Assembly: GCA_017302595.1 (NCBI GenBank)
Contig: JAFLDA010000001.1
Coordinates: forward strand, 694,817-718,816
DNA length: 24,000 nucleotides
Direction: 5' to 3'
Source: Rickettsiales bacterium
GTDB lineage: Bacteria > Pseudomonadota > Alphaproteobacteria > Rickettsiales > Rickettsiaceae
Position numbers and translations under genes: made by a program. Shown here in pieces: positions 4,447 through 20,205 of this stretch (the first letter of the stretch is position 1; every line of letters starts with the position of its first letter). The notes beneath the pieces are model-generated. The model did not search any database. It was given only the letters and a program-made list of their open reading frames with translations, and was not told the origin of the DNA.

Positions 4447-5817
4447 TTGGGGAAGAAATTGATAAGCCAGTCGTTTAAACTAAGACATCTTATAGTATTA
4501 TTTTTAGCCGTAATCATTATCACCTCTATCATGCATGTTTACGTGCCTAGCACCTTATGGTGCTTATTTTCTTCAATTGGCCTATCCACTTTATGCATCG
4601 CGACACTAATTTATGTTCATCTGACTGCTAAGGAAAAAATAAAAGAAACAGCACAGGCACAAAAATTACAAACTTTGGGTCAATTATCTGGGGCTATTGC
4701 TCATGACTTTAATAATATCCTAACAGCAGTAATTGGATATAGCGATATTCTAATCTCCAATGAGCCACAAATAGGTAAATCAGAGGAATTATACCACATT
4801 AAATCAAACGCACTAAGAGGAGCAAAGTTAATAAAACAACTTCTTTCGCATGTAAAAGAACCAACTGATAAACAAGAAGTAGCAATATCAATCAAGAGCT
4901 TCTTTTCAGATCTAGAGCCATATTTTTCTCAACTCCTTGGAGCGAAGCATAAATTAACAATAAAACATAGCAACAAGTCTGCAATGGTAGTTGCAGACCC
5001 AATTCAACTTGAGAGAGTAGTTACTAATTTAATAACTAACTCTAAAGATGCGATGCCTAACGGCGGAGAAATAAATATAAATACTTCATTAGAAAATATT
5101 TCTAATACCTTAACTAAATCTGGATATATCAATCCTATGAACACCTCCCCTCCAAAAGGCGAATTTGTCCAAATTTTAATCACTGACCACGGACACGGGA
5201 TTCCAAAAGCGTTAATAACAAAAGTATTTGATCCTTTCTTCTCCATCAAAAAAAATACCGGCACCGGTTTGGGACTTGCGACAGTAACTCAAATAATAGA
5301 AGATTTAGGTGGGCATATTTTTATTAAATCTAAGGAAAATGTTGGAACTTCATTTTTGCTCTTATTAACTCACTCTCCTGAAACGCATAAATACCAAAAC
5401 ACAGATAAAACAAAACCATCGGAATTAACTGAAGACTTTAACTGTAATGATTATCACATTCTCTTCGTTGAAGATGAGGATCCAGTAAGATTATTTAGCA
5501 GTCATGTTCTTAAGAATTATGGGTTTAATGTGATGGACGTCAGAACAGTAGAAGAAGCTCTTGATGTAGTAAGACAGGGAGTAAGAATCGATTTATTGAT
5601 TACTGACATAACTCTTGGTTCGATGGATGGAAATCAACTAGCTCTAGAAATTAGAAAAATATTACCTAAGATTGCCATAATCATCACTTCTGGATATGAT
5701 AAGAGCTCAGTAAACGATACCGCAATAGGTAAATATCAATTTATTAGCAAGCCATATACAACCGCCGAATTAACTAACGGTGTTATTAAAGGAATAAAAA
5801 ATAATGAACACAAATAA
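4447..5817 (+). CDS. Hybrid sensor histidine kinase / response regulator (CckA-like H-box) with a minimal two-helix N-terminus
   Basis: The ORF is 456 aa. The H-box is LSGAIAHDFNNILTAVIGYSDIL (H86) and the N-box is VVTNLITNSKDAMPNGGEI. G1 is ITDHGHGIP, F is VFDPFFS and G2 is GTGLGLATV. A complete receiver follows: ILFVEDEDP...DLLITDITL...IITSGY...ISKPY. The start given is TTG at 4447. An ATG at codon 29 is the alternative and would remove the first TM helix. Confidence 0.85.
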   Translation: MGKKLISQSFKLRHLIVLFLAVIIITSIMHVYVPSTLWCLFSSIGLSTLCIATLIYVHLTAKEKIKETAQAQKLQTLGQLSGAIAHDFNNILTAVIGYSDILISNEPQIGKSEELYHIKSNALRGAKLIKQLLSHVKEPTDKQEVAISIKSFFSDLEPYFSQLLGAKHKLTIKHSNKSAMVVADPIQLERVVTNLITNSKDAMPNGGEININTSLENISNTLTKSGYINPMNTSPPKGEFVQILITDHGHGIPKALITKVFDPFFSIKKNTGTGLGLATVTQIIEDLGGHIFIKSKENVGTSFLLLLTHSPETHKYQNTDKTKPSELTEDFNCNDYHILFVEDEDPVRLFSSHVLKNYGFNVMDVRTVEEALDVVRQGVRIDLLITDITLGSMDGNQLALEIRKILPKIAIIITSGYDKSSVNDTAIGKYQFISKPYTTAELTNGVIKGIKNNEHK

Positions 5818-8388: not shown

Positions 8389-8430
8389 TTTATGCTATCT
8401 AAAAGCAGCAATTAGCAATCCTGCACCTTA

Positions 8431-8457
8431 GTCATCCCAAACTCGATTTGGGATCCA
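8431..8457. repeat. RPE-like palindromic element, single-arm copy (GTCATCCCAAACTCGATTTGGGATCCA)
   Basis: The hairpin is ATCCCAAA / CTCGA / TTTGGGAT, flanked by GTC...CCA. It is the same unit as the arms at 10440, 15586 and 20066. It lies between the convergent PCu(A)C and ABC genes. Confidence 0.8.
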
Positions 8458-10235: not shown

Positions 10236-10439
10236 ATTAGTGATTTATATTAATTTAAGTATAATTGTCTGAAGTAAAATCAAACTCCAACGGCTTACCC
10301 CACTAAAAATAAGGTAAACTAATTTAAAACAAGTTATAGATTATTATGCACGACAAAACTGAGGAGCGATTGTACCTTTTTAATAAACTAATGGCAACAG
10401 TATTTTTAAGGAAAGAATAAAGTCTTGAACAGTAATTTA

Positions 10440-10503
10440 GTCATTCCAAACCTGATTTGTGATCCATAAATAGTAATGGATCTTGAATCAAGCACAGGAT
10501 GAC
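10440..10503. repeat. RPE-like palindromic element, full two-arm copy (64 nt)
   Basis: The sequence is GTCATTCCAAACCTGATTTGTGATCCAT-aaatagta-ATGGATCTTGAATCAAGCACAGGATGAC. The termini GTCATYC...GGATGAC are inverted, and each arm carries its own small hairpin. It sits in the divergent intergenic region between the ABC exporter and the LRR gene. Confidence 0.8.
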
Positions 10504-10605
10504 TACCAAAAATTTTGCCACAAAACTCTAAAATCTTACTCCAGTAATACATTATTTTTCTTACTTATCTTAACAAATCTTACAAGAATAAAATTTACTA
10601 TGTAG

Positions 10606-10614
10606 TGCTATAAT
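10606..10614 (+). promoter_or_regulatory. Candidate extended -10 promoter element (TGcTATAAT) for the LRR gene
   Basis: TGCTATAAT lies about 20 nt upstream of the ATG at 10634. A Shine-Dalgarno-like AAGAGG follows at 10623..10628. I found no convincing -35 hexamer. Confidence 0.35.
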
Positions 10615-10633
10615 TTTATATAAAGAGGTCATT

Positions 10634-11278
10634 ATGAAACTAGGAAACATTCCAGGAACCATAGCTGAATTAAATCTGCTAGCACAAAATCCAGCATTGG
10701 ATCACAACAGCCCAGCAGTAATGGCTAGTAATGTTTACAACATAATACAAACTACAAAAAACTTAGATGCAAGCTATTTATCTGATAATTTAACTCCGAA
10801 TGCGTTCTTATTATTAGCAAAAATTGCTGCTAATTCTCAATTACGTACTCTTAATATTGCCTGCAATCGCTTATATACATTGGATCATGATTATATTATT
10901 GCTTTAGCGGCTATTATATCTACCTCAAAAACTATACACACTCTTGATATTAAACGTAATTTCTTAGGTGACCATATTTTTGCTTTTATCGAGACCATCA
11001 TTCAATCGAGCGCTTTAAAATTTATTGATATAAGGTGGAATAGTCTACAACACCAAAAGAAAAGTCATGTTAAAACACTGATTCAAGAACATAATGAAGA
11101 AGTACTCGAGTGGCAAAAAGCACTGGAACATTTAAATGCCGCAGTCGGTAGAAGCCTTGACATTGAAGGCGAAATCAGTAGTGTAATAGGTGAAGTGGCT
11201 TTCGTAACAAATGAGAATTGTTATATAACTGGGAATACAATACAATACGTTGTTGATGATAGTTGTGTAATAATCTAG
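10634..11278 (+). CDS. Ribonuclease-inhibitor (RI/RNI)-type leucine-rich-repeat protein with C-terminal CaaX box (CVII); candidate secreted effector
   Basis: The ORF is 214 aa with a good SD (AAGAGG, 5-nt spacer). It holds 4-5 repeats of about 28 aa that fit L-x-x-L-x-L-x-x-N-x-L-x-x-x-x-x-x-x-L-A. Examples are QLRTLNIACNRLYTLDHDYIIALAAIISTSK, TIHTLDIKRNFLGDHIFAFIETIIQSS and ALKFIDIRWNSLQHQ. The last four codons, tgt gta ata atc tag, encode C-V-I-I-stop. Confidence 0.7.
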   Translation: MKLGNIPGTIAELNLLAQNPALDHNSPAVMASNVYNIIQTTKNLDASYLSDNLTPNAFLLLAKIAANSQLRTLNIACNRLYTLDHDYIIALAAIISTSKTIHTLDIKRNFLGDHIFAFIETIIQSSALKFIDIRWNSLQHQKKSHVKTLIQEHNEEVLEWQKALEHLNAAVGRSLDIEGEISSVIGEVAFVTNENCYITGNTIQYVVDDSCVII

Positions 11279-11290
11279 AAGATAAAAAGA

Positions 11291-12526
11291 TTATCCATTT
11301 TTCTTTATAATTTGATTTATTGCATAATACGCAATTACAGCAAATATCATGATGTAGAATAATGGAAACAACTGAAATTCATAGTTTTTCATAAAATACA
11401 GACAAATGAAATTTGCAGTTCCTGACATCAGAAGTGATCCTATTGTATGACCAAGGCTGATACCACGGTATCGTTCAGTAGGTTTGAATGATCCAATCAT
11501 AATTCCATGCGCCAGTCCATTAAACGGTGCAATGCTAATTGCAAGCATTATCGATGAAATTAGAGCTAGATTAAGAAGCTTGGTATATATTGCTATAATA
11601 AGTATTGTAGAAGTTATTAAAGTAGAAATAAGCGCGCTAGCGGTAATAATTCGCAAACCAAACTTATCCGCAATAAGACCAGCAATTGGCATTGAAAAAG
11701 CAAATACTGTAGCTGTAATTACTGAAATTGTACCTATGACTTTGCTTGCATCTGGCATAACTATAGGCAAATATTGCTTCATAAAAATTACTGATATTTG
11801 GTATGTCGCACCAAAGCCACCAGAAAATAGGATAATCAACAATATTGTGCGCCAGTGCTTCTTGGTTAAATATAGGAAATCATAAAACTGCAATTCTTGG
11901 TTTTTTGCTTCTATAAAAATAGGCGTCTCCTCTAGATATTTTCTGTAGTGTAAAGTAATTATTGTTAATGGCAAAGACATTAGAAATGGCAATCTCCAAC
12001 CCCACTCAGGGAACACGGATGAATTAAAGAAATTAGTCGATGCAATACCTAGTAAAAGACCAAATGCACCGGAAGCACGGGTAGCAGCAGAAGCAGTAAA
12101 ATGATAATCTTTTCCTAAATGTTCTATAACATAAATTGCTGCACCATCATACTCACCACCAACAAAAAATCCTTGAAAAAAACGGCAAATAATCAATATT
12201 TGTGTCGCAATCACTCCAATATTGCTGTAGTCAGGCAAGACCCCAATAATCAAAGTCGGAACAGCTATACCAATTACAGTAAATTTAAGAGAAAGCCTTC
12301 TGCCGTACTTATCACCAATCCTGCTAAAAAAAATAGAACCTAATGGCTTTGCTAAATAAGATATTGCATAAATAGCAAACACGTACATAAGACCAGCTAC
12401 CTTGTCAACGTTTGGGAAAAACTTCTCGGCTAGTATTCCTGCTGAAAAGCCATAGAGGCTATAATCATAATATTCAACCACTGTTCCAAGAATTGCTCCT
12501 GTAACTTTTTTATTTTTTCTCACCAT
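11291..12526 (-). CDS. proP: MFS transporter of the metabolite:H+ symporter family (ProP-like proline/betaine transporter paralogue)
   Basis: The ORF is 411 aa with about 12 TM helices. It is collinear with E. coli ProP motifs: GTVVEYYDYSLYGF, PLGSIFFSRIGDKYGRR, FFQGFFVGGEYDGAAIYVIEH and WGWRLPF...YLEETPIF. It lacks the ProP C-terminal coiled coil. Which paralogue and which substrate are uncertain. Confidence 0.8.
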   Translation of the reverse strand: MVRKNKKVTGAILGTVVEYYDYSLYGFSAGILAEKFFPNVDKVAGLMYVFAIYAISYLAKPLGSIFFSRIGDKYGRRLSLKFTVIGIAVPTLIIGVLPDYSNIGVIATQILIICRFFQGFFVGGEYDGAAIYVIEHLGKDYHFTASAATRASGAFGLLLGIASTNFFNSSVFPEWGWRLPFLMSLPLTIITLHYRKYLEETPIFIEAKNQELQFYDFLYLTKKHWRTILLIILFSGGFGATYQISVIFMKQYLPIVMPDASKVIGTISVITATVFAFSMPIAGLIADKFGLRIITASALISTLITSTILIIAIYTKLLNLALISSIMLAISIAPFNGLAHGIMIGSFKPTERYRGISLGHTIGSLLMSGTANFICLYFMKNYEFQLFPLFYIMIFAVIAYYAINQIIKKNG

Positions 12527-13920: not shown

Positions 13921-14009
13921 GAAGAACTATTTAGAACCCTGCAGCTAATTAATTTTTCTTAATAAAATTAGTTGAAGATATAAAAAATATCCATTACACT
14001 GCAAAATGG

Positions 14010-14513
14010 GGCTGCTTGATATGTTAGAGCTGATAAAATCCTCTGAACTATAATTTCATTTCGGGACTGATCTCTGGCAGCATCGTGGTGTTGCTACATT
14101 GGACCCACCTAAACATAACGGTTCTCGAGAGTGAACTGCTATCGACGATCAAAGCGGTCCTTTTCGTCAATGTGGTTTGCTTGAACATTCACTCCTGAGA
14201 ATGTGTATCAACCTTCGATACTTCTGAGCTATTTACCCCGAGTTCTCTTTGCAGTTATAGTAAGTTGCTTTGGTTCTTTTCCCTCAAGCTTTTTTCTTAC
14301 TACGTGCCTCAAGTAACTAATTTTTAGCATTTTTCAAATGTTTCTGGTTTTGTTCGAATTCAATGACCTAAATCTTCACAAGATCGACTATTATCTGTGT
14401 TGCATCTTCTCCTAATTCTTCTGTAATCTTCACTCTATTATTTTTTCTACATAAATACCAAAGCTTTCTAATCCATTATCATCCTCATCTTCTTCAAAAC
14501 TACTTCTTTTCAT
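14010..14513 (-). pseudogene. Probable decayed gene remnant (frame-broken minus-strand reading frames); original identity unknown
   Basis: No ORF of track size exists in 13921..14718. On the minus strand, protein-like pieces follow one another in shifting frames. They are MKRSSFEEDEDDNGLESFGIYVEKIIE*, VKITEELGEDATQIIVDLVKI*, ...KKLEGKEPKQLTITAKRTRGK* and LQRELGVNSSEVSKV... (HTH-like). The segment 14060..14280 looks more G+C-rich than its surroundings by eye. Confidence 0.3.
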
Positions 14514-14613
14514 GTTATACCTGTTTGGCTAATAAAATTAATTAATATGCGTAAGTGCATAATGAATATTAATCAATACAAATATTTAATAGATCGTTTT
14601 TAATAAAACCCCC

Positions 14614-14659
14614 TTATCCCAAACTCCACGTTAGTCGTAGTGGATTGATTAAGGATGAC
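14614..14659. repeat. Degenerate RPE-like element copy
   Basis: The sequence is TTATCCCAAACTCCACGTTAGTCGTAGTGGATTGATTAAGGATGAC. It keeps the ATCCCAAAC left motif and the GGATGAC right terminus. The interior has diverged. Confidence 0.45.
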
Positions 14660-14718
14660 TTTGAAGCGCTCAAAGACAATTTTAGAGCATTGCGCAGTAT
14701 GATAATAAGAATTGAAAG

Positions 14719-15548: not shown

Positions 15549-15651
15549 GTCATCCCAAATACCACCCAAAGTAAACAATCCCAAAGTCATCCCAAACTTG
15601 ATTTGGGATCCATTACTTAATTCATGGATCCTGAATTAAATTCAGGATGAC
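15549..15651. repeat. RPE-like element: leader half-site (GTCATCCCAAAT) plus a full two-arm copy (15586..15651)
   Basis: The full copy is GTCATCCCAAACTTGATTTGGGATCCAT-tacttaattc-ATGGATCCTGAATTAAATTCAGGATGAC. It is the best-preserved copy in the window, and both arm hairpins are perfect. Confidence 0.85.
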
Positions 15652-15697
15652 CGCAGAGGAAGCACTGCTCCGATATTTGGCACGAATACCAGCTAAG

Positions 15698-16552: not shown

Positions 16553-17470
16553 TTATAGTTTTTCAAGTACTAAGGGAAGCATCAATAGCAATCCTATGTA
16601 ATTGTTGGCTTTAAATCTACGATAGCAATTTTTTCTGTTTTGTATATTAATAGTAGCGCAAATCCATATGCAATATAGAAAGCACACGGCATCGACAATA
16701 AAAACTTTTAATCCAAACTTATAAAAAACCAATAGATGTAGTAGTATAAATACACCATAAAAGGTAAGTATTATCTGCTTATATTGCATATGTTCAAAGA
16801 AAATAGCTGTTGATTTAACGCCTATTTTTTTATCATCTTTTATATCCATGAAGGCATATATAGTATCATATGCCATTGTCCAAAATCCACAGGCTATGTA
16901 TAAAATTATTACATCTTTGCTTATTGAATCTTGTACTGCAGCAAAACCTATTAAGGCTCCTGCATTAAATGTTATTCCTAAAAATGCTTGTGGAAAATAG
17001 GTTATTCTCTTCATTAATGGATACAAAATAATTAGGAAAAATGCCACAAAGCCAACAATAATAGCGGTATTAGTTAACGACAATAATATTGCCAAGCAAC
17101 AAAAGAGCAAAATGAGCAAAATAACTATAGCTGTTTTAACAGAAATTGCGCCACTCGCTAATGGTCTGTTCTTTGTTCTAGCCACTTTTTTATCAAAATC
17201 CTTATCAAAAATATCATTTACAATACAGCCAGCAGCTCTAGCAAGTATGCTACCGATAAAAAACAATGGGAGATAGAATAAGTCCAATATTGTCTGACTT
17301 GCCAGAATAAGGCCATAAGCAGCTGGAAAAAAAGATAATAAATAGCCAGTTGGAGCATTTAATCTCATCAAAGCTATTAGTGGAGCAAACTCTTTCGGAT
17401 AAAATATATTTGGCATTTTTTGTATAATTGTAATAATATCTGCGAATTCAAATTGAGCGGCAGAGATCAT
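16553..17470 (-). CDS. ubiA: 4-hydroxybenzoate polyprenyltransferase (ubiquinone biosynthesis)
   Basis: The UbiA motifs are [16 protein letters not shown] and [30 protein letters not shown] second Asp-rich motif is [13 protein letters not shown]. The start is uncertain: ATG 17470 (MISAAQ...) or 17416 (MPNIFYP...). The track start at 17542 would overlap valS by 74 nt. Confidence 0.85.
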
Positions 17471-19970
17471 GGAATTCCCTAGCAAATATAAGTTTAGTGA
17501 CAGCGAGAAAAAATGGCAAGAATTTTGGCAAAAAGAGTCCATTTACAAATGGAATGAAGATGAAGCAAGAAGCAATACTTTTGTTGTAGACACCCCTCCG
17601 CCGACTGTATCTGGTCAGTTACATATAGGGCACGTATATAGTTATACACATACGGATTTTATAGTGCGCTACAAACGCATGAAAGGAATGAATATTTTCT
17701 ATCCAATGGGGTTTGATGATAATGGCTTGCCAACTGAAAGATTAATCGAAAAGAAAAAGAATATTAAAGCCAGGCAATTAAAGCGTGAAGAATTTGTAGA
17801 AATCTGCAAAGAGGTAGTAAAAGAAGAAGAAAACAGGTTTCGTAATTTATTCAACAGGATAGCATTATCAGTCGATTGGAATATTGAGTATCAAACAATT
17901 AGCAATACTTCTATTACCATTTCTCAAATGTCATTTTTGGATTTAGTAAATAAAGGCGAAATCTATCGTGACTCTCAACCTATGCTTTGGGACCCGGTAG
18001 ATCAAACAGCACTTGCTCAAGCTGATATAGAAGATCAGGAAAAAACAACTGTGATGAATGACGTAAAATTCACAGATGAATCTGGTAACCCCTTGGTTAT
18101 AGCAACTACTAGACCAGAATTATTAGCTGCATGTGTTGCGTTATTTTATCATCCTGATGATACAAGATACAAGCACCTTGCCGGCAAAAATGCTATATCG
18201 CCTCTATTTGGAGTACGAGTTCCAATTCTTGCCGACGAACTAGTGAGCATCGAGAAAGGAACTGGTCTTGTAATGTGCTGTACTTTTGGCGATCAAACTG
18301 ATGTTTTATGGTGGAGAAAACATAAATTGCCAACAAAGATCATTATAAGCAAATGGGGTACTATAACAAACCTTGAGTTTGATGATAATTGTAATAATAA
18401 AGAGCTTGCTAATAAGTATGCATCGCAAATACTGGAACTGAAAGTTATAGAAGCAAGAGCAAAAATTATTGAGATTCTACGTAATGAGGAATTGCTACTT
18501 GCTCAAACTGAAAAATTACAAAGCGTGCGATGCGCTGAAAGATCTGGAGCACCACTGGAAATTCTAACTACTCCTCAATGGTTTATAAAGTCAGTTGTTC
18601 ATAAAAATGAAATGCTAGAGAAGTCGCAACAATTGAATTGGCACCCACAATCGATGAAGATCAAATTAGACACGTGGATTAACGGAGTATCTATGGATTG
18701 GTGCATCTCAAGACAAAGATATTTCGGTGTGCCATTTCCTGCCTGGTATTCAAAGCGCGCGGGTGAAGAAGGCAAAGTTATTTTTGCAAAACCAGAACAA
18801 TTACCAGTTGATCCTTTAAAAGACCTACCTGAAGGGTACTTACGTGATGAAGTAGAGCCTGATTATGATGTAATGGATACATGGTCTACTAGCTCGGTGT
18901 CTCCACAATTAAATTCTCATGGAATAGCAAGTGGTTTCATGATCAATGAAAAAAGACATAAATGTTTGTTTCCAGCTGATTTAAGACCTCAAGCACATGA
19001 AATACTTAGAACTTGGGCATACTATACCATACTCAAAAGTCACTTACATGAAAACAGTCTACCATGGACTAATATCATGATCAGCGGTTGGTGTTTAGCC
19101 GAAGATCGAAGCAAAATGTCAAAATCAAAAGGTAATGTACTAGTACCAGATACGTTACTTGCGCAATTTGGAACAGACGTTGTAAGATACTGGGCAGCAA
19201 ATTCCAAACTTGGGGCTGATACTGCTTACTCTGAAGATGTAATGAATAATGGCAAACGCTTGATTAATAAACTTTGGAATGCAGCAAAATTTGCATCACA
19301 GCATTTTGACAAATTATCTGAGAGTGAAAAGAACCTAAAACCAAGCGAGATACTAGATATTGCACATTCTGATTTTGATAAATATTTTTTAAATCAGTTA
19401 TTTAATTTAGTAAATCAATGCACGGCTGAATTTGATAAATATGAATACGCAAATGCTATGGATTTAGTAGAAAAATTCTTTTGGTCTGAGTTTTGTGATA
19501 ATTACTTAGAGATTACTAAAACCAGAGCTTATGACGAAGAAGAAAAAGATCCAAATGGGGCAAGGAGTGCTAGGATTACGCTTTATTATAGCTTAAAAAT
19601 TTTGTTAAAACTTTTTGCGCCATTTATTCCTCATATTACTGAAGAAATATACCAAATTCTATATAGTAATGAGTCTATCCACCGAAGAAATAGCTGGCCT
19701 GAGGTTACTTTAGATATGCAAGAAGATCATACTGAGGCTATGCAATTAGTAGACATTCTAGAACTTGTAAGAAGAATTAAAGCTAAAGATAATTTATCTA
19801 TTAAAGCACCAGTGAGTTGTATTGAGGTAAAAGGCAGGAAAATGTCAGATAGTTTAGTATCTGATTTACTCAATGTAACTTCAACTGCTGAAATTAAGTT
19901 CGTTGAAAACTTGTCTAATACTGACCAAGAACTATTAACTGACGGAGTATCAATAAATGTCATTTATTGA
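17469..19970 (+). CDS. valS: Valyl-tRNA synthetase, archaeal-type as in Rickettsia
   Basis: The ORF is 833 aa. The HIGH region is [26 protein letters not shown], followed by [12 protein letters not shown] and KMSKSKGN. It has no long C-terminal coiled coil of the kind seen in typical bacterial ValRS. Confidence 0.9.
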
Positions 19971-20043: not shown

Positions 20044-20153
20044 GTCATTCCAAAAGCCCTCCAAGGTCATTCCAAACTTGATTTAGGGTCTACCTTGTGA
20101 ATCACTGTAACCTTTCAATGTACTAATGGATCCTGGGTCAAGTCCAGGATGAC
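20044..20153. repeat. RPE-like element: leader half-site plus a full two-arm copy with an expanded spacer
   Basis: The leader is GTCATTCCAAAAGCCCTCCAAG. The full copy is GTCATTCCAAACTTGATTTAGGGTCTACC...(31-nt spacer)...ATGGATCCTGGGTCAAGTCCAGGATGAC. A weaker fragment, CTGAATCAATTCAGCCATTA, lies at 20001..20020 just after the valS stop. Confidence 0.8.
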
Positions 20154-20176
20154 TATAAAATGACGCCCTGTCTTTA

Positions 20177-20205
20177 GTCATGCTGAACTTGATTCAGCAT
20201 CCATT
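20177..20205. repeat. RPE-like element, single-arm copy with a different stem sequence
   Basis: The sequence is GTCATGCTGAACTTGATTCAGCATCCATT. The stem is GCTGAA/TTCAGC instead of CCCAAA/TTTGGG, so both sides changed and pairing is kept. Confidence 0.75.

Follow-up and report, generated by a model that had tools for sequence, protein, structure and literature searches.

Why would a bacterial gene encode a protein that ends in a lipidation signal of eukaryotic cells? This question is raised by a small gene in a 24,000-nucleotide stretch of contig JAFLDA010000001.1 (positions 694,817 to 718,816) from a Rickettsiales bacterium; the whole stretch that was analysed is referred to below as the window. 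The gene, here called the LRR-CaaX gene, has a product of 214 amino acids according to the list of open reading frames (ORFs), and the protein is predicted to be built around leucine-rich repeats (LRRs) of the ribonuclease inhibitor (RI) type. Its last codons, TGT GTA ATA ATC TAG at positions 11264-11278, encode Cys-Val-Ile-Ile followed by the stop, as an earlier note on this DNA had claimed. Such an ending has the form of a CaaX box (Cys, two aliphatic residues, and a final residue X), which, to our knowledge, can be used by host enzymes only and not by the bacterial cell. The ORF is a real gene ending in CVII, and its product is soluble and carries no signal peptide as judged from its sequence. 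The gene and its parts, with the evidence for each in parentheses, are as follows:

10634..11278, plus strand: coding sequence of the LRR-CaaX gene, stop codon included (ORF list; orthologues; ratio of nonsynonymous to synonymous substitution rates, dN/dS)
10634..10756, plus strand: N-terminal cap, residues 1-41 (family alignment; predicted local distance difference test score, pLDDT, of 96-97)
10757..11053, plus strand: four predicted RI-type LRRs, residues 42-140 (AlphaFold2; PDB and profile matches; fold matches)
11054..11149, plus strand: predicted long helix after the last LRR, residues 141-172 (AlphaFold2; alignments; family motif HN.EVLEW)
11171..11260, plus strand: family-wide C-terminal module with helix 180-193 (EISSVIGEVAF) and strand 204-206 (TIQYVVDD) (alignments and AlphaFold2)
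11261..11275, plus strand: clade-specific appended tail S-C-V-I-I, in which the CaaX box is residues 211-214, nucleotides 11264-11275

A terminus of the form Cys-aliphatic-aliphatic-X is expected by chance in about 1 of 1000 proteins, and a single occurrence proves nothing alone. The CVII terminus is more than chance because it is conserved across orthologues. Retention of a cysteine at position -4 had been set as a test, and this cysteine was found in all five orthologue lineages, together with aliphatic residues at the two following positions (a1 and a2). The lineages, their identity to the window protein, and their last four residues are given here:

Window lineage: reference; ends CVII
P0002 lineage: 87% identity; ends CVII
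P0003 lineage: 65% identity; ends CVIS
P0005 (= L010, L011) lineage: 54% identity; ends CVIN
Ca. Megaera venefica lineage: 53% identity; ends CVIN

The terminus thus reads S-C-V-I-X-stop in 5/5 lineages, with X being I, I, S, N, and N. When the last 75 residues were aligned, S-C-V-I was invariant, while the preceding 17 columns contained only two invariant positions. Inside the conserved block the codons differ by synonymous changes (AGT or TCT for Ser, TGT or TGC for Cys, and GTA or GTG for Val), which argues for selection on the peptide. The gene-wide dN/dS was 0.22-0.38 in the three intact lineages, and the tail was likewise constrained. The orthologues occupy gene contexts of three kinds, ATP-binding cassette (ABC)/major facilitator superfamily (MFS), ankyrin (Ank)/MsrAB, and SCO1/Era, and the downstream neighbour varies by lineage between MFS, MsrAB, and Era. 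As these downstream neighbours differ, local or overlapping DNA signals cannot explain the conservation of the tail. We conclude that the terminal CaaX-type box is precisely conserved under purifying selection. Several sequencing-run assemblies, as well as NCBI assembly GCA_020160775.1, encode a protein identical to that of the window, and many independent assemblies carry the gene intact. Scans of metagenomes and genomes for further orthologues returned no lineage that was not already known.

What kind of protein carries this terminus? With the query alone, Pfam matches were sub-threshold (LRR_1, E = 0.004; LRR_6, E = 0.49) and NCBIfam assigned no family, so the RI-type assignment is based on PDB matches, the family profile, and a fold search, not on single-sequence Pfam. 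A PDB sequence search with the query matched RI-like LRR proteins and the LRR domain of NLRP3, and the family profile matched ribonuclease inhibitor (1e-27), RanGAP1 (2e-21), and NLRP3 (~1e-20) in the PDB. The Pfam model LRR_6 was matched by 22 of 32 family members at E values up to 1, the best being 2.6e-16. An AlphaFold2 model based on only four orthologues had a pLDDT of 64 and an uninformative tail; it was replaced by a model built on a 32-sequence family alignment (m0cac4f7ea6f5), with a pLDDT of 85.8, a predicted TM-score (pTM) of 0.79, and pLDDT values above 92 across residues 1-140. The structure prediction, which had been proposed as a check of the fold, thus returned an RI-type LRR fold with high confidence. 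The LRR strands were placed at residues 43-45, 72-74, 103-105, and 130-132, alternating with helices at periods of 29, 31, and 27 amino acids, and the repeat motifs include LRTLNIACNRL, IHTLDIKRNFL, and LKFIDIRWNSL. The earlier note had described 4-5 RI-type LRRs of about 28 amino acids; the repeat type stood, and the model contains four repeats, not five. In Foldseek, with weak E-values and high probabilities, the neighbours of the model were the LRR cap domain of tropomodulin/leiomodin, NLRP1/3, NLRX1, CARMIL, ribonuclease inhibitor, and the Legionella effectors LegL7 and LegL1.

The protein belongs to a wider LRR family; 342 relatives, at E values up to 1e-3, came out of an exhaustive profile search. 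Many relatives are 200-350 amino acids long and consist of an N-terminal cap, a variable number of LRRs, and a C-terminal module. The cap is kept across the wider family (MKL..P..IAELN.LA....D..S..V..S.FY..Q). The label 'eukaryote-like', which had been given to the protein, is fair for the repeat class. On the other hand, the protein is a member of a sizeable bacterial family and not a recent eukaryotic import, its gene having a GC content of 33.6% compared to 34.5% for the window.

The C-terminal module of the family takes the form 'HNxE...helix', then '[LP]xE[IV]xx[LI][IV]GE[YF]', and then a short hydrophobic strand, which ends, for example, in IDFTIE-stop or IDVELDDM-stop. Other members stop at the position aligned with ...YVVDD of the query, to which the query adds the five residues SCVII. 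The SCVIX tail lies beyond the end point of the family, and it is therefore a clade-specific addition and not merely the hydrophobic terminus of the family. An F-box/PRANC identity was considered for the 'LPxEIxxLIGEY' module and rejected for the query, as 0/32 members matched the Pfam models. Comparison of the module profile with the PDB returned no F-box protein, and scans with isolated tails of family members were negative with one exception. The tail of P0043 (LDLPRELLAGIFSWLSLFDLREIA) gave a sub-threshold match to the first half of F-box models (E = 0.002-0.04). The family module may be distantly F-box-like, though the profile tests were negative.

Most relatives have no cysteine near the C-terminus; two of them, P0033 and P0115, have independent CaaX ends. 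P0033 ends in GCVLS and lies on a bacterial contig, where it adjoins a class I tRNA synthetase and UvrC. It contains two sequences resembling ubiquitin-interacting motifs (UIMs), EEQDLLKAIANSLRDAS and AEDLKAAIVNSLRDAQ, with sub-threshold Pfam E values of 0.08 and 0.5. P0115 ends in ...DKKSTSSGCICQ (GCICQ), which follows a hydrophilic, Lys-containing linker. We also observed that P0115 repeats 'LP..LLHHISSFL' twice ahead of its CICQ end, that in the subfamily of P0033, P0049, and P0130 the LRR core is extended by a long charged region, and that P0049, which is related to P0033, ends in GCASSE with the cysteine at -5. Two further candidates were rejected as CaaX examples: P0131 (CVLF) appears to be an over-called ORF whose tail falls in an implausible hydrophobic stretch, and the CLGR of P0125 does not resemble a CaaX box.

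Candidatus Megaera venefica and a Rickettsiaceae metagenome-assembled genome (MAG) have orthologues of the gene, and the closest named relatives of the guanylate kinase encoded in the window are in Rickettsiaceae MAGs, 'Ca. Tisiphia', and Rickettsia. The organism had been described as Rickettsiales-like, and these relationships place it in the Rickettsiaceae, in the Megaera/Megaira group. Members of this group are widespread and unculturable and live as symbionts in protists, among them ciliates and green algae, and we know of essentially no effectors described from them.

With regard to the host enzymes, S at position X, as in the P0003 lineage, is a classical residue for farnesyltransferase (FTase). 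The consensus for geranylgeranyltransferase type I (GGTase-I) is Caa[L/F/I/M/V], into which CVII with X = I fits, and CLIN was partly modified by this enzyme (PMC11304957). In a complete screen of CXXX sequences in yeast, FTase was limited mainly by D, E, K, or R at a2 and by K, P, or R at X, while I at a2 was favourable (PMC10320760). A literature search on CVIN returned nothing relevant.

From the gene, its predicted fold, its family, and the conserved CaaX-type terminus under purifying selection, we infer secretion, lipidation, membrane targeting, and a host target, and we lean towards the reading that this small LRR protein is exported, prenylated by the host at Cys211, and tethered to host membranes. 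In a first step, the protein would be exported to the host cytosol, probably via a type IV secretion system; such systems have been reported in all Ca. Megaira genomes (Davison et al., PMC10132079). Cys211 would then be prenylated by a host farnesyl- or geranylgeranyl-transferase, and the -VII tail would be processed at the endoplasmic reticulum (ER) by Rce1 and ICMT. As a consequence, the LRR surface would be tethered to host endomembranes and would bind a host protein there. An endomembrane of the ER/Golgi type would be likelier than the plasma membrane because no polybasic or palmitoylatable second signal is present.

A number of observations weigh against this reading. Members of the wider family have hydrophobic residues at their very C-termini in any case, and the aliphatic residues a1 and a2 therefore weigh less than the cysteine. 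The ten residues before the cysteine, NTIQYVVDDS, are hydrophobic and acidic and not linker-like, while typical prenylation substrates have a flexible, hydrophilic, often basic linker in front of the cysteine. Part of this segment is modelled as a docked strand (204-206, pLDDT ~77), which leaves only about 5-8 free residues. The N at position X in two lineages is non-canonical, though it is outside the restrictive K/P/R set, and X differs among the orthologues by residues that would switch the prenyl type, a variation that is unusual among eukaryotic orthologues. In addition, the C-terminal 25 residues are net acidic, unlike the positively charged secretion signal of VirB/D4-type systems.

To these points is added the decay of the gene in some relatives. 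In contig L017, which comes from a close relative (MFS 97.6%, guanylate kinase 91%, and short-chain dehydrogenase/reductase (SDR) 94% identical), only the 3' 40% of the gene is left at 4926-5289, syntenic to 10950-11290 of the window, and this remnant contains frameshifts and an in-frame stop, with the CVII codons destroyed. In Ca. Megaera venefica Sr 2-6 (GenBank; L001 6530-6560), the orthologue has a 2-nt frameshift, although the tail is legible in the next frame and an intact fragment (P0026) exists. Likewise, the orthologue of the Rickettsiaceae MAG Tobar12m-G5 (GenBank; L002 5270-5330) is frameshifted, and its intact counterpart is present in L010/L011. The latter two frameshifts may be due either to assembly error or to real pseudogenisation. 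The LRR-CaaX gene is dispensable and its function is not essential; accessory host-interaction genes are typically retained in such a patchy way. The L017 contig was also seen to carry the flagellar genes FlgI, FlgN, and FlgK as well as a family paralogue of 352 amino acids (P0021) without a CaaX box.

The alternative that survives best is a bacterial LRR protein, secreted or not, in which the SCVIX tail serves structure or recognition instead of lipidation; it could be an extension of the terminal strand, an element recognised by the secretion system or a chaperone, or the carrier of a redox or metal-binding cysteine. Four of the points above suit it: family members in general already end in a hydrophobic, strand-like motif that has no cysteine, strand 204-206 immediately precedes the tail in the AlphaFold2 model, the residues upstream of the cysteine are not linker-like, and N at X is non-canonical. 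However, the tail is added beyond the end point of the family, and the last three residues of the model have pLDDT values below 50, so that the extreme terminus is modelled as disordered. The alternative also leaves aside the exact CaaX pattern, with Cys at -4 and aliphatic a1 and a2 all invariant, X free to vary, and the stop fixed in position, as well as the independent gain of CVLS and CICQ by other family members. Nor do terminal S or N residues resemble the hydrophobic C-termini of the class I/II PDZ type. We regard this alternative as unlikely, though as one to be taken seriously.

It is improbable that the protein is a translocated effector whose terminal cysteine serves another modification or interaction, such as S-palmitoylation alone or a C-degron. 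The effector-like context and the family features would apply equally to such a protein, and the acidic residues upstream of the cysteine, atypical of prenylation substrates, would be in line with it. However, no palmitoylation context (a neighbouring lipid anchor or transmembrane segment) is present, and the -4 spacing and the aliphatic a1 and a2, which it would not need, are strictly conserved.

A further alternative holds that a eukaryotic LRR gene was acquired horizontally and is now decaying without function, with its box as a relic. It would agree with the pseudogene remnant in L017, the frameshifts in two assemblies, and the differing gene position among lineages, but it is highly improbable and largely refuted by the selection analysis (dN/dS in the three intact lineages). 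The intact copies in many independent assemblies, a gene GC content equal to that of the genome, a bacterial Shine-Dalgarno sequence, and membership in a large bacterial family, in which the CaaX box is missing from the other members, speak against it as well.

Host prenylation of the LRR protein would have close precedents. AnkB and Pel/CMP of Legionella pneumophila follow the same plan, a eukaryote-type interaction domain combined with a C-terminal CaaX box. The cysteine of the prenylated Legionella effectors is needed for membrane or vacuole localisation (PMC2916131, PMC13081727), and the reverse primer for PelC, when translated here, implies a CTII end with X = I as in the window protein (PMC13081727). 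The domains of AnkB/Pel are Ank/F-box, RCC1, and others, in contrast to the predicted RI-type LRRs of the window protein. They are also substrates of the type IVB system Dot/Icm, whereas the system of the window organism would be the rickettsial type IVA. The hosts differ as well, the window organism being a protist or algal symbiont. Outside the LRR repeats, neither Pfam nor profile searches detected sequence homology.

In Salmonella, SifA is a prenylated, host-lipidated type III effector with a CxxCxx-type hexapeptide and additional acylation. GtgE is another type III effector that uses host CaaX-type lipidation for membrane attachment (PMC13423502). Both SifA and GtgE are type III substrates with folds unrelated to that of the window protein.

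Among the structural neighbours of the model, LegL1 and LegL7 (PDB 4xa9 and 3goz) are type IV effectors and short RI-like alpha/beta LRR solenoids, though the fold matches are weak (E = 0.025 and 0.16). They lack the N-terminal cap and the C-terminal module that define the family of the window protein. We know of no CaaX box in either of them. The eukaryotic RI, RanGAP1, NLRP LRRs, and tropomodulin/leiomodin share with the window protein the repeat length of 27-31 amino acids and the alternation of strand and helix, and the tropomodulin/leiomodin domain (~160 amino acids, 4-5 repeats, and a C-terminal helix) is the best fold match in size and shape. Unlike these eukaryotic domains, the window protein is predicted to have four repeats only, with its own N-terminal cap, its own C-terminal helix-strand module, and a bacterial context. 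The closest eukaryotic analogues in design are FBXL2 and FBXL20, F-box/LRR proteins with a geranylgeranylated CVIL terminus. In them, an LRR interaction module is held at membranes by a CaaX box, and their CVIL is nearly the same as CVII. However, FBXL2 has an N-terminal F-box and LRRs of the cysteine-containing type, and no F-box is detectable in the window protein.

Price et al. reportedly predicted CaaX proteins in silico in many pathogens. The S4TE program uses CaaX as a criterion for type IV effectors of alpha- and gamma-proteobacteria (PMC3814349). Our literature search found no validated natural host-prenylated effector for the Rickettsiales. The LRR-CaaX protein is a credible added case of the host-prenylated effectors of the AnkB, Pel, and SifA class, and the mechanism is not new. 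As an established paradigm already used in effector predictors, it makes for a moderate conceptual surprise. If the reading is true, the Rickettsiaceae, and with them the order Rickettsiales, would gain their first natural example of a host-prenylated effector. Host-mediated prenylation would then no longer be confined to Legionella and Salmonella but would reach the Rickettsiaceae and protist hosts, and the surrounding LRR family, including the UIM-like members, would be marked as host-directed. Few sequence features imply by themselves that a protein acts in a eukaryotic cell; a conserved CaaX box is one of them, which makes the LRR-CaaX gene an easily testable entry point for effector discovery in Megaira/Megaera bacteria.

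A broader interpretation can be offered tentatively, namely that the Megaera/Megaira group uses host prenylation as a general way of effector placement, with an undescribed LRR effector family onto which CaaX boxes were grafted at least three times. Under this interpretation, SCVIX, GCVLS, and GCICQ would be independent grafts, and the variation of X between I, S, and N would be an adaptation to the prenyltransferases of different protist hosts.

The genome of the P0003 orthologue, which ends in CVIS, offers some context. There, the orthologue stands beside a 744-amino-acid ankyrin-repeat protein (L003/L004 3086-5320, minus strand) and a 423-amino-acid LRR_6-like protein (L003/L004 10534-11805, plus strand). 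At 3.3 kb from the orthologue lies a 142-amino-acid ORF (L003 9892-10320, minus strand) that ends in GG-C-C-I-I-S. It encodes a small N-terminal domain, an acidic, proline-rich linker of ~55 amino acids, and a CaaX box with an adjacent cysteine; no Pfam or PDB match was found for it, and it is identical in six assemblies, all of one strain. These neighbours may form a small island of host-interaction genes. Together with the family features, they fit a lineage and a family acting inside eukaryotic cells. A separate observation is that an internal stretch of the 423-amino-acid protein, 'LSTEIVEFIGDNY...LRKVSCGS', resembles the C-terminal motif of the family.

The remaining features of the locus are the upstream signals, the convergent neighbour, and an intergenic repeat:

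10606-10614, plus strand: TGcTATAAT, extended -10-like element (direct sequence reading)
10622-10628, plus strand: Shine-Dalgarno sequence AAAGAGG, 5 nt upstream of the ATG (direct sequence reading)
11279..11290, no strand: spacer of 12 nt between convergent stops (ORF list and sequence)
11291..12526, minus strand: MFS transporter gene, convergent neighbour outside the system (Pfam MFS_1 and Sugar_tr)
~10438..10505, no strand: palindromic hairpin repeat of 68 nt, resembling a Rickettsia palindromic element (RPE) or a miniature inverted-repeat transposable element (MITE) (repeat families D1, D2, and I1; copy alignment)

The features named in the earlier note were thus largely recovered: the Shine-Dalgarno sequence, the convergence on the MFS gene with 12 nt between the stops, and the RPE-like repeat upstream. 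The extended -10 element is present as letters; however, it has no -35 hexamer partner and does not appear in the list of the consensus scan. In that scan, promoter-like sites around the gene were not in excess, with 5 found and 6.8 expected from shuffled sequences. The TGcTATAAT upstream of the gene is a pattern and not evidence of function.

The description of a gene without a bacterial housekeeping role among housekeeping genes also agreed with the annotation, as no such role was found for the protein and its neighbours in the window are all housekeeping genes: GTP cyclohydrolase I, RNase HII, ABC exporters, guanylate kinase, an SDR, a UbiA-family enzyme, a class I aminoacyl-tRNA synthetase, ZapA, and NAD-glutamate dehydrogenase. 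The gene annotation of these neighbours included no secretion genes within the window. The UbiA-family gene (16553-17542; Pfam) was considered and rejected as irrelevant to protein prenylation, since UbiA-family prenyltransferases have small aromatic or haem compounds as their substrates.

Rfam and tRNA scans of the whole window returned nothing. Within a tightly packed region, positions 13921-14718 form a gap of ~800 bp without an ORF of at least 50 amino acids and without an Rfam or tRNA match, and the gap is likewise uncalled in the NCBI assembly (L012). The palindromic repeat family had no match in Rfam. The copy at ~10438-10505 folds into a long hairpin (-24.8 kcal/mol, z = -5.3), other full copies lie at 15585-15658 and 20065-20160, and half copies at 8430-8457 and 20176-20203. 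The repeat of ~68 nt reads AGTCATYCCAAAC...GGATCCAT...ATGGATCC...CAGGATGACT, and at least four intergenic spacers contain it, in full or as half copies.

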